The notes: a model not told the origin generated them from the sequence alone. Numbered from the stretch's first letter, positions 18,627-35,607 are shown. The stretch: 64,000 bases of DNA from an uncultured Desulfospira sp. (GCA_963663165.1 OY760175.1:4160001-4224000); one strand, 5' to 3'. Made by a program: numbers and translations.

Positions 18627-19031
18627 TCATGGGCAAATAAGTTTTATGTTTGGGAAATACGTTCTATATTTTGCAATGTCCCTTGTGACTAAGTCAAATG
18701 AAGATACTGTAGCGTGAGCACCAATGAAGAAATCCGGAAGGGTTGAACTTTTAGTGCCCTTTTTTCTTCGATACTCAAGGAATGTCTTTCCAGCCAAAAA
18801 CAAAGCTTCGCGTGGAATTTCCAGGACTTTTACACCCACTTGTTCAACAGCGTCCTCGACTTCTTCAATACGGTTGAAACCAATTGATATTTGGGTATAC
18901 ACAATTGAATTAATAAATAATGTATTCGTCTGGCTATACTGACTTAATACGTCTTCAGACCAGTTTCCCCATTTAGGATCATTCGTAAACAGATCAAGCA
19001 ACACACACGAATCAATGAAAATTCCGTTCAT
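18627..19031 (-). CDS. VapC/PIN toxin (distal cassette)
   Basis: IFIDSCVLLD, LPDFFIGAHA, VTRD. Confidence 0.9.
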   Translation of the reverse strand: MNGIFIDSCVLLDLFTNDPKWGNWSEDVLSQYSQTNTLFINSIVYTQISIGFNRIEEVEDAVEQVGVKVLEIPREALFLAGKTFLEYRRKKGTKSSTLPDFFIGAHATVSSFDLVTRDIAKYRTYFPNIKLICP

Positions 19032-19252
19032 TTTATTTTTCTTGTCATATTCATGATTTCGTCTGTAGACATTTTAGCTGTAGCAATCCCCCTTAACTTC
19101 GAAAATTTAGAGGTCGTTTTGTTTTTTGATACTTTGACCAGATAAAATCTTCCGTTATCTTCATGAAAATCAACGTCTGTCTCTGGAGCAATACCTAATA
19201 TTTCCCTTACATTCTTGGGGATAGTGACTTGGCCTTTTGTGGTTACACGCAT
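19028..19252 (-). CDS. AbrB/MazE-type antitoxin
   Basis: MRVTTKGQVTIPKNVREILG; AGGAG RBS; upstream palindrome agtaatac-N6-gtattact. Confidence 0.9.
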   Translation of the reverse strand: MRVTTKGQVTIPKNVREILGIAPETDVDFHEDNGRFYLVKVSKNKTTSKFSKLRGIATAKMSTDEIMNMTRKIK

Positions 19253-19321
19253 AATAAATCTCCTTTTATAAAGTAATACCAATATAGTATTACTTTTTGA
19301 TTCGTGCAACGATTTTTTGAA

Positions 19322-20215
19322 ATCGGGTAGCCGGGGGTAGTTATCTACCCCAGACCCCCTCAGAACCGTACGTGACAGTTTCCCGTCATACGGCTCAAGC
19401 ATTTCTAAGGCTAAGCCTTGCGGGGCCGCCCGGTTGTTTGAGCAATAATGAAATTTACAGTCATTTCATAGCATGCGTCCTTGGGCATCGGCCAGGAAGT
19501 ACTGTTTTTTTTTCCTGGTCAAAGACATACGTCCTTTGAAAATGCCTTGGATGTAAATGCCGTACGCTCCTTTAACAACCTTTGCGATACGCATCTACAG
19601 TCTTTTAGCAGCATAAAGCTGCTGATGGGCGCACCAGCTAATGCCGTCATTTGCTTTCCCATCTTAAAAGATTCTCTAAACTCTCTCGCAAAGAAACACC
19701 TGCCCGGGTGTGTCTGTAGTCACACCCGCCGGACGTCAGCTTCCTTTCGGACCGGGTAATATCGGGGTTTTCTCCTCAACCCGTATCCACCTCATTACGA
19801 GATGGCCTTCGCTTTTTCCTGCATCTTACGCCCGCACCCCCATCAGTGTGCCTTGCGGTTTCACCTGCCGAATGTTCCCGGCGAAGATACGGGGTTTCCA
19901 CGTTCCACATTATTGCCGATTAATGGATGACTTAGGCCTGCCCACTGCACCGGCGGCGCAACATCTCACGCGGCAGTTCCGACACCTGCATCCTGACCAC
20001 TCACCTTTTGGTCCAAGCTTACCAGCCTCTTTAGCTTGTTCTCCCTGACGACGCTTAAGGAACATTCAATTAATTTGACCATATCATCCAAACCCTTGCC
20101 CTCACCCGGAATGAGGCTTCCAGGAGGGTATCCACCTCACGGCTTCCACCCCTTCCGCAACTGCGGAATTCGGTACTTTGTCGGTTGGGCTTCACACCGT
20201 TGCCGGATGCACCGG
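19322..20215 (-). mobile_element. Group II intron copy E, ORF-less, 5' end deleted
   Basis: Domain V GAGCCGTATGACGGGAAACTGTCACGTACGGTTC, 3' end ACCCGAT; homology to other copies stops at 20215. Confidence 0.88.
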
Positions 20216-21045
20216 CCATTGCCAGAACCATGAAACAAGTCAATGGATCGACCGGCAGCAAAATAAACTGTTTCATGGTGACTTTTACCTATCCCTGTCA
20301 GTTCAGAGATGTGGCATATCTGAATCAACGGGCAGTTTATTCTCTGATGTTTTCATGTGTATCCGGCACTTTGAAAGATTTTGGGCTCAACCCACGGCAC
20401 CTTGGTGCTCAGATCGGTATAACCATGGTCCTTCACACCAATAGCAGAAGATTGGACTTTCACCCGCATATTCACGTAATTGTTCCAGGTGGCGGTGTTG
20501 ATCCATCCAGACGGCAATGGAAAAAGAAAAAGGCAAGTATTTGTTTAACCAGAAAGCCCTGGCCAAGGTTTTCCGGGCACGTTTCCTGGATGGATTGAAC
20601 AAAAAAAATTTGCCGATCCCCAAAGGTGCTCGTCCCAAATGGGTTGTTGATTGTGAGAGGGTTGGAGCAGGTCTCTCTGCCCTGAAGTATCTGTCCAGGT
20701 ATTTATACAGGGGAGTGATCAGCGAGCGTAATATTATTGCCAACCAGAACGGTCAGGTTACCTTCAGGTATATTGACGGCAAAACCAAAAAAGTATGTAC
20801 GCGAACCCTTAACGGCGAAGATTTCCTGCGCCTGATCCTGCTTCATGTATTGCCCCGGGGATTTCGCAGGGCAAGGGATTACGGTTTTCTTCATGGGAAT
20901 GCCAAAAAAACTGCTCTTTCTGGTACAGATGATTCTCCACGTACGGATTACGGCAATAGTGCGTCGGCCAAGGCCTGTGTTTAAATGCCCCCATTGCGGG
21001 CAGCCTATGAAAATCCTGGGGATAAAACCTGCCGGTGCGGGATAG
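20216..21045 (+). pseudogene. IS91-family (Y2 HUH) transposase, 5'-truncated and frameshifted
   Basis: Four frames give HCQNHE.., FMVTFT, HPHIH (HUH), YLSRY (Y2), HVLPRGFRRARDYG, CPHCG. Confidence 0.88.
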
Positions 21046-21255
21046 GAAAAACAAAAGGTAGAAACCAAATCTCAATTTAACTGGAGGAGAGCAACTCTAT
21101 GAAATAATCCGGCTTTTTTTAGAAAGCCCTGAAAATGGCTATGCTACAGGTGCGCCTTATCTGCGATGTCCGGAAATCAAACTCCTTCCAGCCTCCTAAT
21201 CTCCAAAAAGATATTTTCATATATAGGGAAAGCCCGGTTCATTTTGGCCGGGCTT

Positions 21256-21316
21256 GTTCAACAATCGGATAAGATCGTGGTTCGTTCCTCACACGATCTA
21301 TCCTTATTCGTTGTGT
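21256..21316 (-). other. attC (short, 61 bp), abutting the IS91-like end
   Basis: Minus strand ACACAAC...AGGATAGATCGTG/CACGATCTTATCC...GTTGAAC. Confidence 0.75.
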
Positions 21317-21321
21317 GAGTA

Positions 21322-21732
21322 TTATAGCAAGATTGTTTTGAATGCCTTTTTCCCTTTAATTCTGTAAATAGAAAAGTCACGGTCAATAGTCGCTACTTCA
21401 TTTATCCCCATTTTTTCAGCGAGTAGGACAAGACATGAATCTGCAAAATCCATTGGTAGATCTCGATACTTTTTAGTCAGTTCTTTGATCCTCTGAAAAT
21501 CTGAATTTAATACATTGACTATTTCAACGCCACCCCGACTGACCCATTCGATAAAATCTAACTGTGCATTTCGGTTAAAATCCAAAAGATGCAATGTTTC
21601 TGTAATGGATGCGATCGTGGTTATGAGTAGAGCTTGATTTGACTGGATAAATTCAACAGTCTTTTGATGGTATTTGTCTGAGGAATCAAAAAGAGCAATT
21701 AATGGCCCACTATCAATAAGAATTTTGTTCAT
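21322..21732 (-). CDS. VapC/PIN toxin (cassette)
   Basis: ILIDSGPLIALFD, MDFADS, TIDRDF. Confidence 0.92.
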   Translation of the reverse strand: MNKILIDSGPLIALFDSSDKYHQKTVEFIQSNQALLITTIASITETLHLLDFNRNAQLDFIEWVSRGGVEIVNVLNSDFQRIKELTKKYRDLPMDFADSCLVLLAEKMGINEVATIDRDFSIYRIKGKKAFKTILL

Positions 21733-21971
21733 TTTCTTTTTGCCTGGAGTTTGTTTTTAAGAAGCTCTTTCCTGTTTGAGGACAAATCATTCCGGCCACT
21801 AGCATATTTGCCGAATAAATCTTGACCAGATTCCCACGCACTTTTTGTTTCTATTTTTTTGAAATAATCTACAAGGCTTTTTCGGATAAGCTCGGACTTT
21901 GTTAAGCCGAGATTTTTTGCTGTATAGTTTAATTGCTGCTCAAGCCTTGGGTCAAGTCTTAGTGTAATCAT
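21729..21971 (-). CDS. RHH/CopG antitoxin
   Basis: MITLRLDPRLEQQL...TKSELIRKSL; GGAGG RBS. Confidence 0.88.
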   Translation of the reverse strand: MITLRLDPRLEQQLNYTAKNLGLTKSELIRKSLVDYFKKIETKSAWESGQDLFGKYASGRNDLSSNRKELLKNKLQAKRK

Positions 21972-22035
21972 AATATCACCTCCGTAATACATATGGTAAT
22001 ACATCAAGACTAAAGAATCAACGTTCTTTTTTACA

Positions 22036-22870
22036 GTCGGGTAGGTCGGGGGGGCTTTACAGCCCCTTTCCCCCCCCTCAGAACCGTACGTGACAGTTTC
22101 CCGTCATACGGCTCAAGCATTTCTAAGGCTAAGCCTTGCGGGGGCGCCCGGTTGTTTTAGCAATAATGAAATTTACAGTTATTCCATAGCATGCTTCTTT
22201 GAGCATCCCCCAGGGAAGTACAGTTTTTTTTTCCCTGTTCAAAAAAACATACGTCCTTTGAAAATGCCTATAGATGTGCATGCCGTGTGCTTCTCTAACA
22301 ACCTTTGCGATACTCATCTACAGTCTTTTAACAGTATAAACTGCTGATGGGCGCACCAGCTATTGCCGTCATTTGCTTTCCCCTCTTCAAAGATTCTCCA
22401 GACTCTCTCGCAAAGAAACGCCTGCACGGGTGTCCCCGGCGAGGGTGCGGGGTTTCCACGTTCCACATTATTGCCGATTAATGGATGACTTAGGCCTGCC
22501 CACTGCACCGGTGGCGCAACATCTCACGCGGCAGTTCCGAAACCTGCATCCTGACCGCTCACCTTTTGGTCCAAGCTTATCAGCCTCTTTAGCTTGTTCT
22601 CCCTGACGACGCTTGAGGAACATTCAATTAATTTGACCATATCATCCAAACCCTTGCCTTCACCCGGAATGAGGCTTCCAGGAGGGTATCCGCCTCACGG
22701 CTTCCACCCCTTCCGCAGCTGTGGAATTCGGTACTTTGTCGGTTGGGCGTCACACCGTTGCCGGATGCACCGGTAACTGCATGCCACCTAGGGTGCCGGC
22801 AGGAGAATGCCGGGTTTGGTCAGGACCGACTGGCCCGCCAGACAGCCAATAATGCGACTTCGTGTCGCAC
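22036..22870 (-). mobile_element. Group II intron copy D, ORF-less, with an extra internal deletion
   Basis: 5' GTGCGACACG, domain V, 3' ACCCGAC; lacks about 165 nt (junction near 22433) present in the other copies. Confidence 0.9.
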
Positions 22871-23001
22871 CGAGAACGGGGAGCTGAGGGGCCAGGCTTT
22901 TGAACCCCAAAACTTCCGATAAAAAGTTAAGTTTTCCTGAACCAGAAACTCCCGATAAGGCCGCGCAGTAAGCTTGGTTCCTCTCCAGCGTTTTGTTGTG
23001 C
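22871..23001 (-). other. attC site; intron D adjoins its R' core
   Basis: GCACAAC...CAGCTCCCC-GTTCTCG|GTGCG. Confidence 0.88.
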
Positions 23002-23093
23002 AATATTTTTTCAAGCAAGCCGTCTCTCTTTCAAAATTGAAAATCAACTTATTTTTCCTTGCGCCATACGTCAATATGACGTATATTGAAATC

Positions 23094-23367
23094 ATGAATA
23101 AAGTTATTCTCCATAAACGAGTCCAAAAACAACTTAAGAAACTTCCTTCTCATATAGTTACAAACCTTGAAGTTTGGATGCAAACCGTTGAAGAAGACGG
23201 AATTTTTGAAGCTCGTAAGCTCTCTGGTTACCATGATGAGCCTTTGGGCGGCAAAAGAAAAAGGGCAGCGGTCTTTCAGGCTGTCCAAAGCATATAGAGG
23301 TTTTTACATTGAGCACAATGGCAATATAATTATAGAGGTTATTGAGGTGAACAAACATGAGTACTGA
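23094..23367 (+). pseudogene. RelE/HigB-like toxin split by a +1 A in a homopolymer; gene pair inverted relative to the array
   Basis: MNKVILHKRVQKQL...GYHDEPLGGKRK continues as GQRSFRLSKAYRGFY...EVNKHEY in another frame. Confidence 0.8.
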
Positions 23368-23653
23368 ATACGGCATTAAAGAATTAGAAAACGATTTTGG
23401 ACCTTTGACATTTGGCAAGGCTCTTGCGGCCCATAGAAAAGGCGAAGAAATGACCCAGAAGCAGTTTGCTGATTTTTTAGGTATAACATCATCCAGCCTT
23501 TGTGACCTGGAAAAAGGACGAAGAATACCGTCTGTGAAAAGGGCTGCTAAAATTGCGAAGGCCTTAGGAATGTCAGAAAAAACATGGGTTAAATTTGCCA
23601 TACAAGACATGATCCGTGAGGCTGAGCTTGAGTATACTGTGTCTGTCGCGTAA
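23357..23653 (+). CDS. HigA-like XRE antitoxin
   Basis: MTQKQFADFLGITSSSLCDLEKGRRIPS HTH. Confidence 0.9.
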   Translation: MSTEYGIKELENDFGPLTFGKALAAHRKGEEMTQKQFADFLGITSSSLCDLEKGRRIPSVKRAAKIAKALGMSEKTWVKFAIQDMIREAELEYTVSVA

Positions 23654-23735
23654 TACATTTAATGTGTTATAGGCTTTCAATAAGGCCGACAAGTCGAACT
23701 TGTTGAAAGTTAACCATCTCCGTTTCGTTTCAAAG

Positions 23736-25668
23736 ATCGGGTAGGTCGGGGGCTTTACAGCCCCTTTCCCCCCTCAGAACCGTACGTGACAGTTTCCCGT
23801 CATACGGCTCAAGCATTTCTAAGGCTGAGCCTTGCGGGGCCGCCCGGCTGTTTTCTCTTGCCAATGCTGAAATTTACAGTTATTTCATTACATATTTTCT
23901 CGGCCGCTGTGACAGGGATCACCTTTGGTTTCACCCGTCTTGCCCAGTGGATTTTATCCATGAAGGCCTGCACATTTTTCCTGGATGGTTTAATGAGCAG
24001 TTTGCCGTCATACTTACGAATGTTTTGGCCCAGAAAATCGAATCCCCGGTCAATTCGGGTAATCAGGGTCTTTTCTTCAGACAGGGATAGATCCCGTTCC
24101 GAGAGAAATCTGATTATGGCCGGTTTGACCTTGTCTTCAAGAAGTTCCCGGGTTGCACCGGTAATAATGAAATCATCAGCATACCGGATGACGTTGATTT
24201 TGGAACTGATGTCCTTACCGTTGCGTCTGTCCCTGACAGGGGCAACAGATCCGGCAGTCCCTTCAATGCCGTCCAGAACCATGTTGGCCAGTGTGGGAGA
24301 GGCAATGCCGCTTTGCGGTGTTCCCCGGCCTGTTGGAAAGAATTTACCGTCCTCCATAAACCCGGAAGCCAGCCATTTGGTAAGGATCATCTTATCCATA
24401 GGGATATGGTCGATCATCCAGTCATGGCTGATTTCATCAAAGCAGGCTTTAATATCCGCTTCAAGTATCCAGACCGGCGAGGTTTTCTTGGCCAGTGTAT
24501 TAAAGCATTGGGATATGGCGTCCGCACATCGCCTGTATGACCTGAATCCGTATGAATTGTGGTCGGCCAGTGTTTCTGCTATCGGCTCCAATGCCAGTTT
24601 ATACAATGCCTGAACAGCCTGTCGATCATTGTGGGAATACTTAACGGACGTTTCTTGCCGTTCTTTTTGGGAATATAGATCCGCCTGAGCGGTGATGGCT
24701 GGTATCCTCTCCGTTTGAGGTTGCCTGCTGCCTGGAATTTCTTCCTGGCGGTTTTCCAGGTGACGTTGTCGACACCCGGAGTGCGTTTCCCTTTATTGGA
24801 GGTCACGCGTTTTACAGCTAACAGCTTTGCCTGGTAAGAGTGGGTCAGAAGCCACTGGAGGGCCTTGGCCCGTCCGTATCTTCCTTCTTTCACAGCCTTT
24901 GCGATACGCATTTGCAGTCTTTTAACAGCTTCATAAATGGCTTTCCAATGAATGGACTTCCAATTCCTGAAACTGCCGATGGGCGCACCAGCTGTTGCCG
25001 TCATTTGCCTTCCCATCTTCAAAGATTCTCCAGACTATCTCGCAAAGAAACACCTGCCCGGGTGTGCCTGTAGCCACACCCGCCGGACGTCAGCTCCCTT
25101 TCGGGCCGGATAATGTTGGGATGTTCTCCTCAATCCGTATCCACCTCATTACAAGATGGCCTTCGCTTTTTCCTGCATCTTACTCCCGCACCTCCATCAG
25201 TGTGCCTTACGGTTTCACCTGCCGAATACTCCCGGCGAAGATACGGGGTTTCCACGTTCCACACTATTGCCAATTAGTGGATGACTTAGGCCTGCCCTCT
25301 GTACCGGCGGCGCAACATCTCCGTGCAGGCAGTTAGGAAACCTGCAGCCTGACCGCTCACCTTTTGGTCCAAGCTTACCAGCCTCTTTAGCTTGTTCTCC
25401 CTGACGGTACTTACGGAACATTCAATTAATTTGACCATATCATCCAAACCCTTGCCCTCACCCGGATTGAGGCTTCCAGGAGGGTATCTGCCTCACAGCT
25501 TCCACCCCTTCCGCACTTGCGGAATTCGGTACGTTGTCGGTTGGGCTTCACACCGTTGCCGGATGCACCGACCACCGCATGCCACCTAGGGTACCGGCAG
25601 GAGAATGCCGGGTCTGGTCAGGACCGACTGGCCCGCCAAACAGCCAATAATGCGACCTCGTGTCGCAC
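23736..25668 (-). mobile_element. Group II intron copy C with a defective IEP
   Basis: GTGCG...ACCCGAT boundaries; near-identical to copy A except a 372-nt in-frame deletion. Confidence 0.93.
23809..25016 (-). pseudogene. ltrA: Group II intron RT/maturase: frameshift near 24618, 124-codon deletion after YADD, PQGG changed to PQSG
   Basis: ORFs 24579-25022 and 23809-24606; RYADDF present. Confidence 0.9.
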
Positions 25669-25798
25669 CCGAACGGGGAGCTGAGGGGCCAGGCTTCTTA
25701 AACCCAAAAGCTCCGATAAAAGTTTAAATTTTCTTGAACCAGGGACTCCCGAGAAGGCCGCGCAGTAAGCCTGGTCCCGCTCCAGCGTTTTGTTGGCC
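25669..25798 (-). other. attC site; intron C inserted in its R' core
   Basis: GGCCAAC...CAGCTCCCC-GTTCGG|GTGCG. Confidence 0.9.
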
Positions 25799-25809
25799 CT
25801 TTAAAGTAT

Positions 25810-26187
25810 TCATTTGTGTTTAATGCTTTTCTTATATGTTGTAATTAACTTTGATATCATAGAATTAACATTGCAATTTTCATTATCTGCAAGATCATTT
25901 AACTTTTTAAAGTTTGAATCTGTAATGTTTTTGTCTAAAATTCTTACACTTCCATCGTTCCAACGTAGCACACCTCGACTATCAAGAATAAATCTATCAG
26001 GATATTGCTTTGCAGCCTTTTTCTTGGTTTCATTCCAAGCAGCATTTATTTCTCGAGTGGAAGATAGCTGCCCAACAAGACCTAAACGTAAAGTAACATT
26101 TTCTTTTAAATGTTCTGTTCCGTTCGGAAGTTCTGTAAGCTGTTCCAACATCATTTTCGATATTCTGCCTTTTGATAACATTGCCAT
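25810..26187 (-). CDS. Hypothetical cassette protein
   Basis: AT-rich ORF filling the space between two attC sites; start MAMLSK. Confidence 0.75.
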   Translation of the reverse strand: MAMLSKGRISKMMLEQLTELPNGTEHLKENVTLRLGLVGQLSSTREINAAWNETKKKAAKQYPDRFILDSRGVLRWNDGSVRILDKNITDSNFKKLNDLADNENCNVNSMISKLITTYKKSIKHK

Positions 26188-26212
26188 ATTTCCAATCCCT
26201 ATGATATTACGA

Positions 26213-26328
26213 GGCCAACGGGTAGGGGCATATTGCCGAGCAGGTTGTCGAAGCCAAGTTTTTTCGAAAACCAAGGGCTTTTGAAAAGCCGCTAGCCCCC
26301 CGGGTCGGCCTGCAGCGTTTTGTTGGGC
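26213..26328 (-). other. attC site with the L' arm deleted
   Basis: Aligns to attC 33159-33285 but lacks agctcagccgacc. Confidence 0.8.
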
Positions 26329-26333
26329 AAATT

Positions 26334-26687
26334 TTAATCAACTTCTCGTGGTTCAAGTAACAAATTAAGACCTTGCAATATTTCTTCAAAACGTTTTTTT
26401 GAAAGCGTCCCGATTTTTTCGGTTAGATCACTTTTATTGACTGTATAAATTTGCGAAATATTCACAACGCTTTTCTTCGGAATGTTTGCTTCACCTTTTT
26501 TAAGAGTTACATTTCCGGGTGCGCTGCCTAACCTTAAATTTGATGTGAGGGCACAAACAACGGAAGTGTTTATTCTACTTTGATTAAAAAGGTTATTTTG
26601 AATTACAAGATGTGGATGACGATAACCGGGTTCTGATCCTTGTGGCTCTCCAAAATCAATCCAATAGATGTCACCCTGTCTTACCAT
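26334..26687 (-). CDS. MazF/PemK toxin (cassette)
   Basis: QGDIYWIDFGEPQGSEPGYRHPHLVIQNNLFN. Confidence 0.92.
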   Translation of the reverse strand: MVRQGDIYWIDFGEPQGSEPGYRHPHLVIQNNLFNQSRINTSVVCALTSNLRLGSAPGNVTLKKGEANIPKKSVVNISQIYTVNKSDLTEKIGTLSKKRFEEILQGLNLLLEPREVD

Positions 26688-26926
26688 TGGTCTTTCACCA
26701 TTTTTTTATGTTTCGGGCGCATTTTTTGAACTAAAGAGTCTGCTTGTTGATCATCATAAATGTCGTTTAGCTGTTGAAGCAATTCAATGTTTTGATGACG
26801 CTGGATATACTCTTTGACTGCTTGTGAAAAGATATAACTTCTCGAGACATTTAAACTTTTTGCAAGAATATTTATTTTTTCAAAAATGGGCTTTTCTATA
26901 GAAATGGCTGTTTTTACATTCGGCAT
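26681..26926 (-). CDS. RHH-type antitoxin
   Basis: KTAISIEKPIF...VSRSYIFSQAVKEY; overlaps the toxin gene. Confidence 0.87.
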   Translation of the reverse strand: MPNVKTAISIEKPIFEKINILAKSLNVSRSYIFSQAVKEYIQRHQNIELLQQLNDIYDDQQADSLVQKMRPKHKKMVKDQW

Positions 26927-26990
26927 ATTGATTCCTCCATTATTTTTTTACAGTATAATGTCTGGTATGAAAGACGTCAATACTTTGGTA

Positions 26991-27121
26991 GCCCACCGGG
27001 GAGCTAACCGGCCGGGCGTTGAAGCCACAAAAGCTCCGATAAAAGTTTAAAATTTCATTAACCAAGCTGCTTCAAAATGCCGCGCAGATAAGCCCGGTCG
27101 GGTTCAGCGGCTTTGTTCGCC
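26991..27121 (-). other. attC site with R' core changed from GTT to GGT
   Basis: GGCGAAC...TAGCTCCCC-GGTGGGC. Confidence 0.82.
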
Positions 27122-27124
27122 TCA

Positions 27125-27460
27125 TCAGTATGCAAACAGTTCCTGTAAACAATTACAAACTTTAATTTGGGTAGTTTTTGAAATAACTCCAAACTTTTTG
27201 ACTAATCTTAATTTATCTACAGCTCTTATTTGATCCAATAATATCAAGCCTTTTTTACCTTGGAATGTACATTGAATTCTTGTGGGGAAATTGAAGCCTT
27301 TGGAGGTCATTGGGGCAACAATAGCCGTTTTTAATGAAGACATTTCGTCAGGAGAAATTACAACACAAAGCCTTTTTTTCTTTATTTCGTGACCTTGTGT
27401 CGGGTCCAATTGAACTAACCAAATGTCGAATCTGTTGATAGGCTGATTCACCATTCCCAA
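27125..27460 (-). CDS. PemK/MazF toxin (cassette)
   Basis: DIWLVQLDPTQGHEIKKKRLCVVISPDEM, LDQIRAVDK. Confidence 0.92.
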   Translation of the reverse strand: MGMVNQPINRFDIWLVQLDPTQGHEIKKKRLCVVISPDEMSSLKTAIVAPMTSKGFNFPTRIQCTFQGKKGLILLDQIRAVDKLRLVKKFGVISKTTQIKVCNCLQELFAY

Positions 27461-27702
27461 TCCTCATCATCAACCAGAGATGCATCCAACCATTCCTGGT
27501 CCAACTCCTCTTCGTTTTCTGCTTTAAGGTATTTTTCAAATTGTTTTTTCCACCCCTGCCTGGGTTTTCTGGATGGTTTTATTAACAGCCCTTCATCAAG
27601 CACCTTAAATTCCAGTTCTTTCTCATTAAGTTGTGCTTGTTCAATAATCGCTTTGGGAATTCTCACTCCTTGCGAATTTCCAATTCTTATTAATGTTGCC
27701 AT
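27448..27702 (-). CDS. AbrB/MazE antitoxin
   Basis: LIRIGNSQGVRIPKAII. Confidence 0.92.
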   Translation of the reverse strand: MATLIRIGNSQGVRIPKAIIEQAQLNEKELEFKVLDEGLLIKPSRKPRQGWKKQFEKYLKAENEEELDQEWLDASLVDDEDWEW

Positions 27703-27787
27703 AAACACCTCTAATTTTGATTAATGTAATTACAACATAATCACTTAATTCTGTTTTTGTCAAATCAAAATCGTAGGTTTTTAGAAG

Positions 27788-28777
27788 ATCGGGTAGCCGG
27801 GGGTAGTTATCTACCCCAGGCCCCCTCAGAACCGTACGTGACAGTTTCCCGTCATACGGCGCAAGCATTTCTAAGGCTAAGCCTTGCGGGGCCGCCCGGT
27901 TGTTTTAGCAATAATGAAATTTACAGTTATTTCATAGCATATATCCTTGAGCATCTGCCCGGAAAGTATTTTTCTTTTTCCGGGTCAAAAGAGAACATCC
28001 TTTTGAAAGATGCCTCTGGCGTGTATGCTGTGTGCTACTTTAACAACCTTTGCGATACGCATCTACAGTCTTTTAACAGAATAAATCTGCTGATGGGCGC
28101 ACCAGCTATTGCCGTCATTTGCTTTCCCATCTTCAAAGATTCTCCAGACTCTCTCGCAAAGAAACACCTGCCCGGGTGTGCCTGTAGCCACACCCGCCGG
28201 ACGTCAGCTCCCTTTCGGGCCGGATAATGTTGGGATGTTCTCCTCAATCCGTATCCACCTCATTACAAGATGGCCTTCGCTTTTTCCTGCATCTTACTCC
28301 CGCACCTCCATCAGTGTGCCTTACGGTTTCACCTGCCGAATACTCCCGGCGAAGATACGGGGTTTCCACGTTCCACACTATTGCCAATTAGTGGATGACT
28401 TAGGCCTGCCCTCTGCACCGGCGGCGCAACATCTCACGCGGCAGTTAGGAAACCTGCAGCCTGACCGCTCACCTTTTGGTCCAAGCTTACCAGCCTCTTT
28501 AGCTTGTTCTCCCTGACGGTACTTACGGAACATTCAACTACTTTGACCATATCATCCAAACCCTTGCCCTCACCCGGATTGAGGCTTCCAGGAGGGTATC
28601 TGCCTCACGGCTTCCACCCCTTCCGCAGTTGCGGAATTCGGTACGTTGTCGGTTGGGCTTCACACCGTTGCCGGATGCACCGACCACCGCATGCCACCTA
28701 GGGTACCGGCAGGAGAATGCCGGGTTTGGTCAGGACCGACTGGCCCGCCAAACAGCCAATAATGCGACTTCGTGTCG
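27788..28777 (-). mobile_element. Group II intron copy B, ORF-less; first 3 nt separated from it by copy A
   Basis: Begins CGACACG directly after the 3' end of copy A; domain V and ACCCGAT end. Confidence 0.9.
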
Positions 28778-31082
28778 ATCGGGTAGGTCGGGGGCTTTAC
28801 AGCCCCTTTCCCCCCTCAGAACCGTACGTGACAGTTTCCCGTCATACGGCTCAAGCATTTCTAAGGCTGAGCCTTGCGGGGCCGCCCGGCTGTTTTCTCT
28901 TGCCAATGCTGAAATTTACAGTTATTTCATTACATATTTTCTCGGCCGCTGTGACAGGGATCACCTTTGGTTTCACCCGTCTTGCCCGGAAGTATTGTTG
29001 ATGTTCCGGGTCAAAAGGATTTGCATCGCTTTTGATTTTGATGTGCCGTTGGATATGTATGCTGTGCGCTTTGATGAGTTCGGATGTTCTCGGGTTGCCG
29101 TTTTTATCTTTGACCACCGTTGAGAACCGCCCCGGTTTTGAGCCCTTTGACCAGTACGTCTTTTTCAACCATTGGATGCTTTTATTCCGGTGACGTCGTT
29201 TCACCCATTGCCACGCTTCATTCCATATGTACCCGTCAACATAGCTGAAAGTTTTTGCTGAGACAACATGTTTGTGATAGTTCGCCCAACCCCTTATTTT
29301 CATGTTAAGATCATGAATCAGAGCCTCGGCTTTCGATCCCCGGTGCTTCCTGAACGTCTCGTGGATTTTATCCATGAAGGCCTGCACATTTTTCCTGGAT
29401 GGTTTAATGAGCAGTTTGCCGTCATACTTACGAACGTTTTGGCCCAGAAAATCGAATCCCCGGTCAATTCGGGTAATCAGGGTCTTTTCTTCAGACAGGG
29501 ATAGATCCCGTTCCGAGAGAAATCTGATTATGGCCGGTTTGACCTTGTCTTCAAGAAGTTCCCGGGTTGCACCGGTAATAATGAAATCATCAGCATACCG
29601 GATGACGTTGATTTTGGAACTGATGTCCTTACCGTTGCGTCTGTCCCTGACAGGGGCAACAGATCCGGCAGTCCCTTCAATGCCGTCCAGAACCATGTTG
29701 GCCAGTGTGGGAGAGGCAATGCCGCCTTGCGGTGTTCCCCGGCCTGTTGGAAAGAATTTACCGTCCTCCATAAACCCGGAAGCCAGCCATTTGGTAAGGA
29801 TCATCTTATCCATAGGGATATGGTCGATCATCCAGTCATGGCTGATTTCATCAAAGCAGGCTTTAATATCCGCTTCAAGTATCCAGACCGGCGAGGTTTT
29901 CTTGGCCAGTGTATTAAAGCATTGGGATATGGCGTCCGCACATCGCCTGTATGACCTGAATCCGTATGAATTGTGGTCGGCCAGTGTTTCTGCTATCGGC
30001 TCCAATGCCAGTTTATACAATGCCTGAACAGCCTGTCGATCATTGTGGGAATACTTAACGGACGTTTCTTGCCGTTCTTTTTGGGAATATAGATCCGCCT
30101 GAGCGGTGATGGCTGGTATCCTCTCCGTTTGAGGTTGCCTGCTGCCTGGAATTTCTTCCTGGCGGTTTTCCAGGTGACGTTGTCGACACCCGGAGTGCGT
30201 TTCCCTTTATTGGAGGTCACGCGTTTTACAGCTAACAGCTTTGCCTGGTAAGAGTGGGTCAGAAGCCACTGGAGGGCCTTGGCCCGTCCGTATCTTCCTT
30301 CTTTCACAGCCTTTGCGATACGCATTTGCAGTCTTTTAACAGCTTCATAAATGGCTTTCCAATGAATGGACTTCCAATTCCTGAAACTGCCGATGGGCGC
30401 ACCAGCTGTTGCCGTCATTTGCCTTCCCATCTTCAAAGATTCTCCAGACTATCTCGCAAAGAAACACCTGCCCGGGTGTGCCTGTAGCCACACCCGCCGG
30501 ACGTCAGCTCCCTTTCGGGCCGGATAATGTTGGGATGTTCTCCTCAATCCGTATCCACCTCATTACAAGATGGCCTTCGCTTTTTCCTGCATCTTACTCC
30601 CGCACCTCCATCAGTGTGCCTTACGGTTTCACCTGCCGAATACTCCCGGCGAAGATACGGGGTTTCCACGTTCCACACTATTGCCAATTAGTGGATGACT
30701 TAGGCCTGCCCTCTGTACCGGCGGCGCAACATCTCCGTGCAGGCAGTTAGGAAACCTGCAGCCTGACCGCTCACCTTTTGGTCCAAGCTTACCAGCCTCT
30801 TTAGCTTGTTCTCCCTGACGGTACTTACGGAACATTCAATTAATTTGACCATATCATCCAAACCCTTGCCCTCACCCGGAATGAGGCTTCCAGGAGGGTA
30901 TCCGCCTCACGGCTTCCACCCCTTCCGCAACTGCGGAATTCGGTACTTTGTCGGTTGGGCTTCACACCGTTGCCGGATGCACCGACCACCGCATGCCACC
31001 TAGGGTACCGGCAGGAGAATGCCGGGTTTGGTCAGGACCGACTGGCCCGCCAAACAGCCAATAATGCGACCTCGTGTCGCAC
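28778..31082 (-). mobile_element. Group II intron copy A, full length (2305 nt)
   Basis: 5' GTGCGACACG, IEP ORF, domains V/VI, 3' ACCCGAT. Confidence 0.95.
28851..30430 (-). pseudogene. ltrA: Group II intron RT/maturase (CL-like, no HNH domain) with one frameshift near 30032
   Basis: WKSIHW..RLQMRIAKA..GKRTPGVD N-terminus, TPQGG, RYADDF, RGWANYH; IDRAVQAL broken by one missing G. Confidence 0.92.
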
Positions 31083-31209
31083 CACGACGGGGAGCTCAGC
31101 CGCCCGGAGCGAGAACCGAGAACTTCCCCAAAATTAAATTCTTTTCAAAAACCAAGGTCTTTCAAAAAGCCGATAGCTCTCCGGGTCGGCCTGCAGCGTT
31201 TTGTTGTGC
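31083..31209 (-). other. attC site; introns A/B at its R' core (GTC variant)
   Basis: GCACAAC...GAGCTCCCC-GTCGTG|GTGCG; near-identical to attC 31952-32078. Confidence 0.88.
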
Positions 31210-31212
31210 GAG

Positions 31213-31518
31213 TTATATTAAAGCCTCTAAGCCTTTTCTTTCCATGATATCCAACAATTTCCTTGAGGCTCCTGTAGGTTTTTTATTCCCCTGTTCCCAC
31301 TTCTGTACAGTAGAGGTACTAATATTGAAAACGCTTGCTAACGCAGCTTGGCTTAAATTAAATCTTTTTCGGATTTCGGTTATGTTTTTGGGGGAATAGT
31401 CTTTAACTTCTGGAAGACATAATTTTTCAATATTTCTTAAAGTAATGTCATCCACAAGCCCACTTTTATTTAAGTCCCTTACGGTTTCGGTAATTGAATC
31501 TGAAATTGATTTTCTCAT
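31213..31518 (-). CDS. HigA-type XRE antitoxin
   Basis: LSQAALASVFNISTSTVQKWEQGNKKPTG. Confidence 0.92.
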   Translation of the reverse strand: MRKSISDSITETVRDLNKSGLVDDITLRNIEKLCLPEVKDYSPKNITEIRKRFNLSQAALASVFNISTSTVQKWEQGNKKPTGASRKLLDIMERKGLEALI

Positions 31519-31883
31519 GTTGCCACCTCTTTTAAATCACCATTTTGGACTGCTATATCAATTTCCCTTTCAGAAAATGAAAGTAAAATTTTAGCAAGTT
31601 CCTTGAAGACAAATAGCTCTTTGGGTGAAAGGTTTGATTTTTCATTTTTTGAGAATCCATGGATGAAAATAATTCTGCTCCCTTTTTTATAGCAAACAAT
31701 CGTTCTTCCACTACCGCTTTTGCCTTGACCAGGGAACCGAATTCTTTTTTTGTAAATGTGTCCGCCCAAATTTGCTTCGTAATTTCCACTACCGACTTCT
31801 TCCAATGCTGTTTCCAAGTCATCGATCAGTATTTTTTGCTTTGAAGCCCATTTCGCAAAGTGCTTTGTCATTAATTTTCGCAT
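31515..31883 (-). CDS. RelE/HigB-type toxin (cassette)
   Basis: NLGGHIYKKRI, GKSGSGRTI, GFSKNEKSNL. Confidence 0.92.
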   Translation of the reverse strand: MRKLMTKHFAKWASKQKILIDDLETALEEVGSGNYEANLGGHIYKKRIRFPGQGKSGSGRTIVCYKKGSRIIFIHGFSKNEKSNLSPKELFVFKELAKILLSFSEREIDIAVQNGDLKEVAT

Positions 31884-31951
31884 AACAACAATATAGCACC
31901 GGGTGACATGATTTTCAATATGTCTTTTTCTGTATCACGTTGGTTTTTAAC

Positions 31952-32078
31952 GCACAACGGGGAGCTCAGCCGCCCGGAGCGAGAACCGAGTACTTCCCAA
32001 AAATTAATTTTTTTCAAAAACCAAGGCCTTTCGAAAAGCCGCTAGCTCTCCGGGTCGGCCTGTAGCGTTTTGTTAGCT
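31952..32078 (-). other. attC site
   Basis: AGCTAAC...GAGCTCCCC-GTTGTGC imperfect hairpin. Confidence 0.9.
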
Positions 32079-32081
32079 GAA

Positions 32082-32600
32082 TTATTTTAGTTCAGCCATT
32101 ATTCTCTTCGGTGGTTCACTACTTTGGTGATCGGCGTCGGAGTTGAGAGATTTCTTAACAGCGGATTCAGCTCTAAACGAAATACTTGATGATTCAAGTT
32201 TGAAGAGTGCATCTGTAATACCCAAACGAATGATATCATTCTTTTTATGCCCAAGACTCAATCTCATTATTCGTGTAAGGTTTCCGTATGCCAAAATCTC
32301 TTGTTCTCCTTCTAACGTTGCTCCTTTACTCCAAAAACTTATTAATGATTTAACAACCTCCGGTTCACCGCAAGTAATGATCCTACTTTTGGCATCATTC
32401 AAGGCAGCCAAATCGATATTTTCATTTGTGACATCTCCAAGCCGTCTTGAAACGGCAAGTCTCGAAGCTGCAGCTAAAAAGTCTGAATAGGATTGAATTT
32501 GAAATTTCAACAGTTCACTTCTTTTATTCCGTGCGGTTGTTAAGTAGTGTGTAATAAAGGCTGCTATAATCGCACTAATAAATGATAAAAATATTGTCAC
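32082..32600 (-). CDS. Hypothetical cassette protein with an N-terminal TM helix
   Basis: 172 aa, GTG start, fills the cassette. Confidence 0.8.
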   Translation of the reverse strand: MTIFLSFISAIIAAFITHYLTTARNKRSELLKFQIQSYSDFLAAASRLAVSRRLGDVTNENIDLAALNDAKSRIITCGEPEVVKSLISFWSKGATLEGEQEILAYGNLTRIMRLSLGHKKNDIIRLGITDALFKLESSSISFRAESAVKKSLNSDADHQSSEPPKRIMAELK

Positions 32601-32614
32601 GAGTTTCCTTTACC

Positions 32615-32744
32615 AGCTAACGCGGAGCTGAGGGGCCAGGCTTTTAAACCCCAAAACTCTCGATAAAAAGTTGAATTTTCCTGAACCAAGCACTCCCAAA
32701 AGGCCGCGCAGTAAGCCTGGTCCCTCTCCAGCGTTTTGTTCTGC
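32615..32744 (-). other. attC site
   Basis: GCAGAAC...CAGCTCCGC-GTTAGCT; same family as 22871 and 25669. Confidence 0.9.
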
Positions 32745-32748
32745 AAAT

Positions 32749-33150
32749 TCAGCTGGTTAATAAATTGGGGATTTGTTTTCCTCGTTCAAAAATTATTTTT
32801 TCACAGAAAAATTCCCAATTTGTATCCATTTCCGCATCATAAACTTTCAAATTTCCTTGTTCCCAACCATCTATTTGGTAATCATCAATAGAAAGTTGAA
32901 CAATATCAATATCAGGGCATATAGTTATACTTCTTGGCCGTTCGATAATCATTTTGATTATAGGGATGTCATATGCATTTCGATCTTTTGTTAATTCAAG
33001 AACCATAACGTTGCATAAGTCCCCAGAAGCATCCAAATAATGTTCATATCTTAGTGACCAAATTTGTTTGTAGTTGATTAAGTTCCCGTCTGGCAACAGG
33101 TCTTCAATTTTATTGTAGCCAATAAATGTTTTTATATTTGCTGGTATCAT
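32749..33150 (-). CDS. Hypothetical acidic cassette protein
   Basis: 133 aa AT-rich ORF between attC sites. Confidence 0.8.
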   Translation of the reverse strand: MIPANIKTFIGYNKIEDLLPDGNLINYKQIWSLRYEHYLDASGDLCNVMVLELTKDRNAYDIPIIKMIIERPRSITICPDIDIVQLSIDDYQIDGWEQGNLKVYDAEMDTNWEFFCEKIIFERGKQIPNLLTS

Positions 33151-33158
33151 TTTTAATA

Positions 33159-33285
33159 GCAGAACGGGGAGCTCAGCCGACCGGGGCGTATAACCGAGCA
33201 GGTTGTCGAAGCCAAGTTTTTTCGAAAACCAAGCACTTTCGAAAAGCCGCTAGCCCCCCGGGTCGGCTGCAGCGTTTTGTTGTGC
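33159..33285 (-). other. attC site of cassette 1
   Basis: GCACAAC...GAGCTCCCC-GTTCTGC. Confidence 0.9.
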
Positions 33286-33327
33286 AAAATGTCTTCTCCC
33301 TAAACCAAAAAGATTTATTAAATCTAA

Positions 33328-33963
33328 TCATTTAAAGGATGCTTGCCCACCTGAACATAAAGCCAACAACTCTTTACTGCTCAACAATTCCGCTGCCATT
33401 TGGCGTAAAATAATATATTGCACGTCTGGAACAGGAATGTTTTTGGGAATTCCGTCGATTATTTTTGTAATATACCCAACTGCTGGACCATTTTTAACCT
33501 GATCGTATTCTTTGGAGAGTTTTTTATCAACGTGCGCCCCTCCATCCTTATTCGCTGCCCCAAGATATATATCTCTTCTCGATATTCTCATGGTCGTTTG
33601 TAATATTGATTGGTTAATCCATGTTTTTATAGAAACGTCTGTATATTTAGTATCGTTAAATCTGCATGCGGGGACAAAATGGGTTCCTGGAGTAGGGTGA
33701 TTACAACCAATTGCGTACATACCGCCAGCCATAAATGCAAGCTTGTCGTCGTCTTCGCCATCACCTACAGTAGATGATAATTTAATATCAGAAGCTTTTA
33801 AGTGCTTTAATAAAGATGTAGAATTTTTGGTATCGTGAATTAACACCCTTATCGTTGTTGCAATTCTAAGCCCTTCATCTTTAAATCCTTGATCGAAAAG
33901 AATGCTTGATCTATGAAGAAACCCTAATTGTTCTTGTAATTTTTCTTTAAAATCAACAGCCAT
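33328..33963 (-). CDS. Hypothetical protein, first cassette
   Basis: 211 aa AT-rich ORF; AAAGGA RBS. Confidence 0.85.
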   Translation of the reverse strand: MAVDFKEKLQEQLGFLHRSSILFDQGFKDEGLRIATTIRVLIHDTKNSTSLLKHLKASDIKLSSTVGDGEDDDKLAFMAGGMYAIGCNHPTPGTHFVPACRFNDTKYTDVSIKTWINQSILQTTMRISRRDIYLGAANKDGGAHVDKKLSKEYDQVKNGPAVGYITKIIDGIPKNIPVPDVQYIILRQMAAELLSSKELLALCSGGQASFK

Positions 33964-34138: not shown

Positions 34139-34212
34139 GCATTAATTGCAATTTTTGGGTATTATTTTACACAACTTGAACTACCCCCAGAAAGATATTG
34201 GATACCTACCAT

Positions 34213-35607
34213 ATGAATCCGGCAAAATCAACACACGAAAACGAAATCAAAAGATTTTGGGACAATTACATTAATCGTTTAGAACATGCTGGTATTAAAA
34301 GTAATGTTTCCAGGTGGTATGTGATCAGAGCCGAGCAGTATATCAAGGCTTTTCCGGATAAGCGTCTGGCCGATCATAACCCTGAGGACGTGGTCTCCTA
34401 CCTGGAGCAGCAGGGCCGGGCCGGCCGGATTCAGGACTGGCAGTTCCGGCAGCTGGTCGATGCTATACAGAATTTATTTTCCATGCTTGGCGTATCCTGG
34501 CTGTCGGATGTAGACTGGCAGTTCTGGATGGATTCAGCCGCGTCCCTGACAGAAGTTCATCCCACAGTTGCCGGCAGCCTTCCGGCTAAAGCAACCATTG
34601 AAAAATTATCCGGCCGAAAAGGCTCACAGCTTTCCGCTGTCCGCAAACTTCATGCAGATCTTCTGGAAAAGCTGCTGATCGTCTTGCGGACGAAGGGGTA
34701 TTCCATAAGAACCGAGCAGTCTTACGAATCCTGGGTAAGCCGTTTTATTGAGTTTTGCCAAAATCAGGACCCGGCCGGGCTTGGTAAGGTTGAAGTGGTC
34801 TCCTTTTTGCAACATCTGGCTGTTGGGCGGAATGTGGCGGAGAGTACCCAGAACCAGGCGTTGAATGCCCTTGTCTTTTTTTATGACAAGGTTTTGGAAC
34901 AGCCCCTGGGGGATCTTGGGGATTTTGTCCGGGTAAAACGCCCTAAACGGCGACCGGTTGTGCTGACCCGGATTGAAGTGGCAAAACTGATCGACCACAT
35001 GGAGGGCCGCCAGAAACTGATGGCCTCCCTGCTTTATGGCACCGGCATGCGGCTGATGGATTGTATCAGGCTCAGGGTCCAGGATATTGATTTTGGGTAT
35101 TATCAGATTGTGGTCAGGGACGGAAAAGGCAAAAAAGACCGGGTAGTTCCATTGCCGGAAGGGCTTGTCAGCGATCTTACGGCCCATCTTGAAAAAGTTC
35201 GTAAACTGCACGAGGCAGATTTGGAAAAAGGGTTTGGAGAGGTCTATCTACCCTATGCCTATGACCGCAAATCCCCCAAAGCGGCAAAGGAATGGGGATG
35301 GCAGTATGTGTTCCCCAGCGGACGGCTTTCCGTTGATCCAAGGAGTGGAAAAACACGCCGTCACCATATTCACGAAAATGGTCTTCAAAAAGCCGTGAAA
35401 AAAGCGGCGCAGCAGGCCCAGATTACGAAAAGGGTAAACTGCCACGCCCTTCGCCACAGTTTTGCCACCCATCTTCTGGAAAGCGGTTATGATATCCGTA
35501 CCGTGCAGGATCTGCTCGGCCATGCCAATGTTTCAACAACCATGATCTATACCCATGTGCTTAACCGGGGCGGGAGAGGCGTAAAAAGTCCCTTTGACGT
35601 GCTGTAA
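34213..35607 (+). CDS. intI: Integron integrase, long form with an N-terminal extension
   Basis: [18 protein letters not shown]...TTMIY plus the integron-specific WQYVFPS..SVDPRSG..RRHH segment. Confidence 0.96.

Follow-up and report, generated by a model that had tools for sequence, protein, structure and literature searches.

Group II introns at integron attC sites of an uncultured Desulfospira sp. and the family-wide covariation of guide and variable target core

Does a group II intron that sits repeatedly at one kind of recombination site change its guide together with the variable part of that site? The question is raised by a 64,000-nt stretch of DNA from an uncultured Desulfospira sp. 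(GCA_963663165.1 OY760175.1:4160001-4224000; hereafter the window, with positions counted from its first letter), in which an integron cassette array holds five group II intron copies, A to E, on the minus strand. A first-pass annotation had noted that a putative exon-binding site 1 (EBS1) differs between these copies and follows the adjoining target, and had proposed that the guide diversifies over the variable part of the R' core of attC. The observation is real and its interpretation right in kind: family-wide covariation upholds it, and tracking inside this genome does so poorly. The evidence for guide tracking is thus strong at the family level and weak in this genome.

Two guides and the sites they face

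All five copies match the Rfam models for intron domains D1-D4 (RF02012, 54.3-95.2 bits) and D5/D6 (RF00029, 59.8-72.1 bits). A regular-expression (regex) search of the reverse-complemented window bears out the annotated hexamers (Table 1). In copies A, B and C it finds CCTAAC and the loop pattern GGTTTCCTAAC-TGCC; in D and E the hexamer is CGGAAC. The 5' junctions, with a slash at the insertion point, read ...CCCCGTCGTG/GTGCGAC in A, ...CCCCGTTCGG/GTGCGAC in C and ...CCCCGTTCTCG/GTGCGAC in D. Their pairing is as had been described: GTTCGG of copy C matches CCTAAC at 5/6 positions, GTCGTG of copy A at 4/6 (three Watson-Crick pairs and one G-U), and GTTC(T)CG of copy D matches CGGAAC at 6/6 with the T at -3 bulged. 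Copy B is without its first 3 nt (GTG) and abuts the 3' end of A, and therefore has no exon of its own, while copy E is without about its first 95 nt and has therefore lost its 5' exon. Three usable junctions (A, C and D) are too few for testing, and the question of chance was settled on the 13 junctions of the genome whose loop can be read and on a total of 61 attC-type junctions.

The genome contains 17 matches to the first 419 intron nt and 14 intact 5' junctions; 13 junctions have a readable loop. Homologues were sought in 401 genomes belonging to the same order, of which 24 gave matches, and a metagenome scan by a motif downstream of the loop, the loop itself being excluded, gave at least 120 stretches, so that the lineage is common in environmental assemblies. 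From the genome, the order genomes and the metagenome matches listed, 74 non-redundant introns with both junction and loop were assembled. Of 157 anchor matches, 71 were dropped because no 5' junction could be reached in them; two rows with a doubtful 5' end (L210, L190) and three exact duplicates (L232, L243, L246) were also removed. Loops were picked by a hairpin search on a narrowed region, with two corrected and four added by hand. In two metagenomic relatives (L170, L238) a small additional hairpin interrupts the EBS1 loop directly behind GCTAA, and both were left out of the counts. A scan of genome contigs for the 5'-end pattern was rejected, most of its 121 stretches being chance matches in GC-rich genomes; L058, L075 and L096 from that scan stay in the junction set because they also match the anchor motif.

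Every aligned column of domain I was scored for complementarity to the intron's own exon minus that to the other exons. Over the 74 introns, exon positions -6 to -1 give one outstanding peak at nt 332-337 (own minus cross 1.54; next column 0.44), which places the guide in the very loop and register that the annotation had assigned to it. Exon positions -12 to -7 give a peak at nt 267-272 (AGGGAG; 1.15; next column 0.38). The hexamer at nt 332-337 occupies positions 4-9 of an 11-nt terminal loop of domain I; this loop is 11 nt long in 58/74 introns, and its stem is preserved by compensatory changes. Own pairing amounts to 5.35 of 6 positions against 4.55 after permutation, with 0/20000 permutations reaching the observed value. 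Introns with targets other than attC carry fully different guides that match their exons (GATCAT/ATGATC, TCCATT/AATGGA and GTATAG/CTATAC). By these sequence criteria the hexamer is EBS1, predicted to pair with exon positions -6 to -1, and GGGAG at nt 268-272 is EBS2, predicted to pair with the conserved attC motif CTCCC just upstream; related introns show covariation between EBS2 variants and the exon.

A sister subfamily (L024, L027, L028, L035, L036, L041, L043) begins with UUGCG and is inserted at sites other than attC, with the pattern TCTCCAT...ATCNNNN/. Within its 14-nt loop the EBS1 register lies 2 nt further upstream and shows clean covariation, e.g., CUGUGA with TCACAG.

Guide-core covariation and its competing explanations

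Across the family, guide and variable core covary strongly, and the correlation holds over many homologous insertions. In 48 non-redundant attC-type junctions from other genomes and metagenomes, pairing at the variable positions is 0.806 against 0.659 with exons shuffled, a value that 0/20000 permutations reach. Thirty-five of these junctions, which are in the GTTNNN/ register and of which any two are more than 5% diverged, give 0.819 against 0.683, with 0, 1 and 4 of 20000 permutations reaching the observed value under three weights for G-U pairs. Among 23 nearest pairs that do not overlap and that differ in both guide and core, own pairing exceeds cross pairing in 14, falls below it in 2 and ties in 7 (sign test, p=0.004), a comparison that controls only partly for related introns not being independent samples. 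Guide position X1 is G in 4/8 cases when exon position -1 is C, against 1/35 otherwise (Fisher p=0.0026). Ten of the 15 non-CCT guides outside the genome fit their own site better than CCT would, and one fits it worse. CCT itself is the common guide and is found at many cores to which it has a single mismatch; the U faces A in 25 cases and G in 9.

Within the genome, 15 copies carry four guide alleles, CCT, CGG, CTC and CCG, each in 3 to 8 copies except for the single CCG copy. As the annotation had it, the differences fall at the three 5' guide positions; AAC, which reads GTT, does not vary among the 15 copies. No other column of the 468 in domain I is as diverse as nt 333 (pi 0.65) and nt 334 (pi 0.68), against a mean of 0.06. 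Each multi-copy allele is found on different backbones and is not monophyletic: the CTC copies 1863201 and 1879647 differ at 15 positions in nt 100-331, whereas 1863201 differs from a CCT copy at 1. Five ORF-less copies of ~835-1000 nt (B, D, 903578, 1886142 and 5577783), which lack the intron open reading frame (ORF), have the same ORF-deleting breakpoints; three others (C, 1888829 and 1863201) share a 374-nt ORF deletion; and guide alleles vary inside each of these groups. The bulged reading of GTTC(T)CG has gained support from a second independent copy with the same exon and guide. CGG is thus the guide at both GTTCTCG sites, although their attC and 3' contexts differ (chance under random assignment 3/78 = 0.038), and a GTTC(T)GG site carries CCGAAC. 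Sites of the form GTTC(T)NG are fitted by CGG and CCG, whereas CCT acts like a generalist and no fit is seen for CTC.

These patterns are best explained, with a probability of about three in four, by a chloroplast-like (CL)/IIB1-type intron family that has settled at attC sites throughout the integron arrays of the genome and reads its target through EBS1 and EBS2. EBS2 GGGAG would pair with the conserved CTCCC and EBS1 NNNAAC with GTTNNN, with AAC/GTT fixed and the three 5' guide bases facing the degenerate core. New guide alleles would arise by mutation, be shuffled between copies by recombination and spread via retrohoming, for which one intact intron protein may serve in trans; the ORF-less copies with varied guides would then parallel the ORF-less TeI3 introns mobilised in trans. 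The CCU guide would act as a generalist, because its U can pair with either A or G and a single mismatch is accepted, and new alleles would open core variants that it reads poorly, possibly to some selective advantage.

Besides the incomplete control for relatedness and the 4/6 pairing of copy A, several observations weigh against this explanation. Target tracking within the genome is weak (p about 0.03 to 0.56): over 13 copies the observed pairing is reached by 528 of 20000 permutations when G-U counts as a full pair, by 2731 when it counts half and by 11268 with Watson-Crick pairs only, so that the outcome depends on the credit given to G-U. The CTC allele fits its own site better than CCT would in 0/3 cases, and a GTTAGG site, a perfect match for CCTAAC, holds a CTCAAC copy instead. 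Three GTTAGG and five GTTGTG sites are unoccupied. The bulged pairing between EBS1 and its intron-binding site (IBS1) is unorthodox and is based on three junctions. Finally, an upstream inverted repeat beyond that of shuffles was detected in only 28/56 GTT-type junctions with at least 110 nt of flank; for the 28/56 where it was not detected, attC status is assigned by the GTT core and the adjoining motif only. This check used gapped local alignment, as an ungapped inverted-repeat test missed even known attC of this genome.

Some of these same points would be expected if most copies were dead and the guide polymorphism among them came from neutral decay or gene conversion, the matches in this genome being due to chance and mismatches being tolerated beside the anchor of AAC/GTT and EBS2. 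Only 1/14 copies examined (5575411) has an intact ORF, the within-genome permutation is not significant unless G-U is credited, CTC is without fit and perfect GTTAGG sites stay empty. Drift, however, does not predict that the guide columns should be the most diverse of all 468, and the presence of all alleles except CCG in 3 to 8 copies each means that variants have spread. The strong family-wide covariation and the pairing of both GTTCTCG sites with CGG also speak against decay, which we consider unlikely.

It is also conceivable that the last exon bases simply travel with the intron, through recombination by the integron integrase (IntI) at the core, homologous recombination between attC sites or co-conversion, with no guide-directed choice of target. 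The integron crossover lies between G and TT of R'; TTNNN and the intron would therefore belong to the downstream cassette and move along with it, and the mosaic backbones show that recombination does occur. The two GTTCTCG/CGG copies nevertheless differ in the upstream attC and in the 3' exon (TGTAAAA vs CTCAAAA) and are not one moved cassette, and the 35 outside insertions in the GTTNNN/ register still covary at more than 5% divergence, which makes such passive transfer very improbable.

Colonisation by a CL/IIB1-type intron agrees with the class of the element. In the D5/D6 alignment D5 is 34 nt long; a shorter D5 marks class IIC. One copy (5' end at genome position 5575411; L287:275-1861) encodes an intact 528-aa intron protein with RVT_N, RVT_1 and GIIM domains that scores 361 bits against TIGR04416 (cut-off 300), and a Pfam domain search of this protein gave no match to an HNH or endonuclease (En) domain. 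Its best solved relative is 6me0_C, the reverse transcriptase (RT) of TeI4h (E 1.4e-165), followed by LtrA (3.1e-36) and IIC enzymes (~1e-33). On the combined sequence features of nearest solved protein, D5 and guides, the intron is provisionally classified as a CL/IIB1-like group II intron and not as IIC. TeI4h is described as CL/IIB1 in the cited part of PMC2882425, and the reading of the 5' exon by a 6-bp EBS1 plus EBS2, which the unbiased scan found here, is given as the mode of recognition of IIB introns in that of PMC7923331. The idea that the hexamer is not EBS1 and that the intron is of the IIC-attC type, recognising the attC hairpin plus 3-4 bases, would suit an insertion directly after the attC hairpin, as reported for IIC-attC introns (passages cited from PMC7923331), yet it is already contradicted by the scan and the protein match and is hardly credible for an intron in sense rather than antisense orientation, at R' GTTNNN/ and not R'' TTGT/T, with a 6-bp EBS1 and an EBS2, a protein nearest to a IIB1 intron RT and a D5 of 34 nt.

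Intron copies and their integron setting

The features of the window are collected in Table 1. The ORFs of its intron copies are broken or deleted. Copy A is 98% identical over its full length to the intact genome copy, and its RT ORF is split by a frameshift, with RVT_N in one ORF and RVT_1 and GIIM in another.

Table 1. Features of the window; minus-strand introns are given from 5' to 3' end.
Feature	Position in window	Strand	Evidence
Intron copy A, 2305 nt	31082 to 28778	minus	Rfam RF02012 + RF00029, junction regex
Copy A EBS1, CCTAAC	30746-30751	minus	regex
Copy A 5' exon, GTCGTG	31083-31088	minus	junction regex
Intron copy B, ORF-less, ~990 nt	28777 to 27788	minus	Rfam, junction motifs
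Copy B EBS1, CCTAAC	28444-28449	minus	regex
Intron copy C, 1933 nt	25668 to 23736	minus	Rfam, D5/D6 alignment, junction motifs
Copy C EBS1, CCTAAC	25332-25337	minus	regex + unbiased scan
Copy C EBS2, GGGAG	25397-25401	minus	unbiased scan
Copy C 5' exon, GTTCGG	25669-25674	minus	junction regex
Intron copy D, ORF-less, 835 nt	22870 to 22036	minus	Rfam, junction motifs
Copy D EBS1, CGGAAC	22534-22539	minus	regex
Copy D 5' exon, GTTCTCG	22871-22877	minus	junction regex
Intron copy E, 5'-truncated	~20239 to 19322	minus	Rfam; match starts at query nt 95
Copy E EBS1, CGGAAC	19976-19981	minus	regex
Y2 transposase (IS91-like, Y2_Tnp), two overlapping frameshifted ORFs	20185..20984	plus	Pfam PF04986, E 3.5e-12 and 1.1e-29
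Integron integrase gene, divergent from cassette array	34198..35607	plus	NCBIfam TIGR02249, 456.5 bits (cut-off 265); Pfam Phage_integrase
Cassette array, mostly toxin-antitoxin pairs	19000..33963	minus	Pfam, attC motif list

The array is marked by a repeated imperfect-palindrome motif ending in GTTNNN, with attC called by a motif list. Nine of the ten cassette ORFs with a Pfam match lie on the minus strand and the integrase gene is divergent on the plus strand, so that the introns are in the sense orientation of the cassettes. The true start of the integrase is probably later than the start of its ORF, as judged from the family match, which covers residues 156-469. The attC sites end in ...GAGCTCCCCGTTNNN on the minus strand and the introns directly follow the R' core, inserted after its sixth base, or its seventh in four copies (GTTNNN/Y). 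Two attC sites of the window are unoccupied, with ends at ~31951-31967 (GTTGTG/C) and 33159-33174 (GTTCTG/C). Both strands of each fold as imperfect hairpins of similar energy (-17.2 vs -21.6 and -29.7 vs -28.9 kcal/mol), and folding therefore cannot tell attC top from bottom; the orientation is taken from intI and from the way the ORFs run.

Three arrays of GAGCTCCCCGTT-type attC, all on the minus strand, lie at 1.86-1.92 Mb, 4.18-4.19 Mb (this window) and 5.54-5.61 Mb of the genome. By a reading of 49 motif rows, 13/35 attC sites of this type hold an intron or intron fragment and 22/35 are empty. In 10/10 genome copies with a located 3' junction the 3' exon starts with C or T, and two of the three empty GTTAGG sites have G next. 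The sequences suggest that the third intron-binding site (IBS3) may require a pyrimidine, the Y of GTTRRRY.

Copies A and B form a tandem in which the 3' end of A (...CTACCCGAT) is fused directly to nt 4 of B (CGACACGAAG...; window 28770-28790, minus strand). It may have arisen by insertion at the 5' edge of B, by template switching or by recombination. The Y2_Tnp ORF fragments adjoin the truncated 5' end of copy E. The ORF-less copy 903578 (plus strand) lies outside the arrays, at GTTCTGG after a terminator-like hairpin and T-run (CTGCGGATAAACCGCAG-ATTTTGAC), and combines the unique guide CCGAAC with an altered EBS2 (CGGAG). In runs X1-X4, contigs show alternative letters at window positions 22537-22538, exactly two guide positions of copy D, that match the CTC and CCG alleles and probably stem from other intron copies of the same or related strains. 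The run contigs are broken at repeats and none spans intron D.

Relation to known systems and implications

One of the closest parallels is offered by the CL/IIB1 introns TeI3/TeI4 of Thermosynechococcus elongatus (Mohr et al. 2010, PMC2882425). According to the passages cited from that paper, these too occur as many closely related copies per genome, in families that differ in EBS, with IBS mostly complementary and mismatched at some sites; ORF-less derivatives are mobilised by the proteins of other copies, and introns insert next to or into other introns. The protein described here is also most similar to the RT of TeI4h. The same passages mark the differences. In T. elongatus the families have unrelated targets and correspond to clades, whereas here the targets are variants of one recombination site, 2-3 guide bases vary, EBS2 is fixed and the guide alleles are not monophyletic; and TeI4h has an En domain, of which the protein here has no match.

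With the group IIC-attC introns (e.g., S.ma.I2) the introns described here share the specialisation of a lineage on attC and the residence in cassette arrays. As the cited parts of PMC3001079 and PMC7923331 describe them, IIC-attC introns target the bottom strand, opposite to cassette transcription, at TTGT/T in R'', through hairpin recognition and an IBS1 of 3-4 bp with no EBS2. The introns of this genome differ in being inserted in sense, after R' GTTNNN, with a 6-bp EBS1 and EBS2 and with IIB1-like RNA and protein.

The other close parallel is UHB.I2 (IIB1, CL1; Sonbol and Siam 2021, PMC7923331), reported just downstream of attC in the same orientation as the cassettes, whose 5' end, UUGCG, is shared by some members of the present family. 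The cited sections of that study concern one full intron (UHB.I2, on one metagenomic contig) and two H. halochloris fragments, with no flanking exon conservation and no attC-reading guide proposed. Here, in a comparison with UHB.I2 made by description only, 61 junctions share GTT and the AAC of EBS1, and the guide bases covary. In a full-text literature search whose scope ended before subscription journals, PMC7923331 alone links IIB introns to integrons.

Divergence of EBS between copies, ORF-less derivatives and insertion of one intron next to another are thus already known from T. elongatus (passages cited from PMC2882425), as is a sense IIB1 intron beside attC on one metagenomic contig (those from PMC7923331). 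What is new is the predicted recognition rule, by which EBS2 and NNNAAC would read CTCCC-N-GTTNNN on the sense strand, together with the size of the lineage, the confinement of fine guide variation to the degenerate part of one recombination site, and the distribution of guide alleles over mosaic backbones. Mechanistically this is ordinary group II biology, set in a niche of which little has been described. Until 2021 the introns of integrons were known only as antisense IIC-attC introns reading a folded bottom strand; one IIB1 case followed, for which no recognition rule was given. The family adds a second natural system, after T. elongatus, for the study of guide divergence and of putatively trans-mobilised ORF-less introns, and a natural case of fine retargeting within a single conserved site in which guide alleles pass from one backbone to another.

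It is tempting to go further, and a broader picture is possible, if doubtful: a widespread IIB1-type lineage may live on integrons by reading the top strand of attC R', keeping within one genome a small stock of 3-base guides that are interchangeable, are shuffled among backbones with and without an ORF, and together would cover the RRR of GTTRRRY, so that the retroelement would be adapted both to retrohoming and to cassette shuffling. An intron just past the IntI crossover point would head the downstream cassette and be movable by the integrase, and, if this picture is true, its sense orientation means that it can splice out of array transcripts. With a sense-strand retroelement at the cassette boundary of 13/35 attC sites of one type, these introns may affect both the expression and the mobility of integron cassettes.

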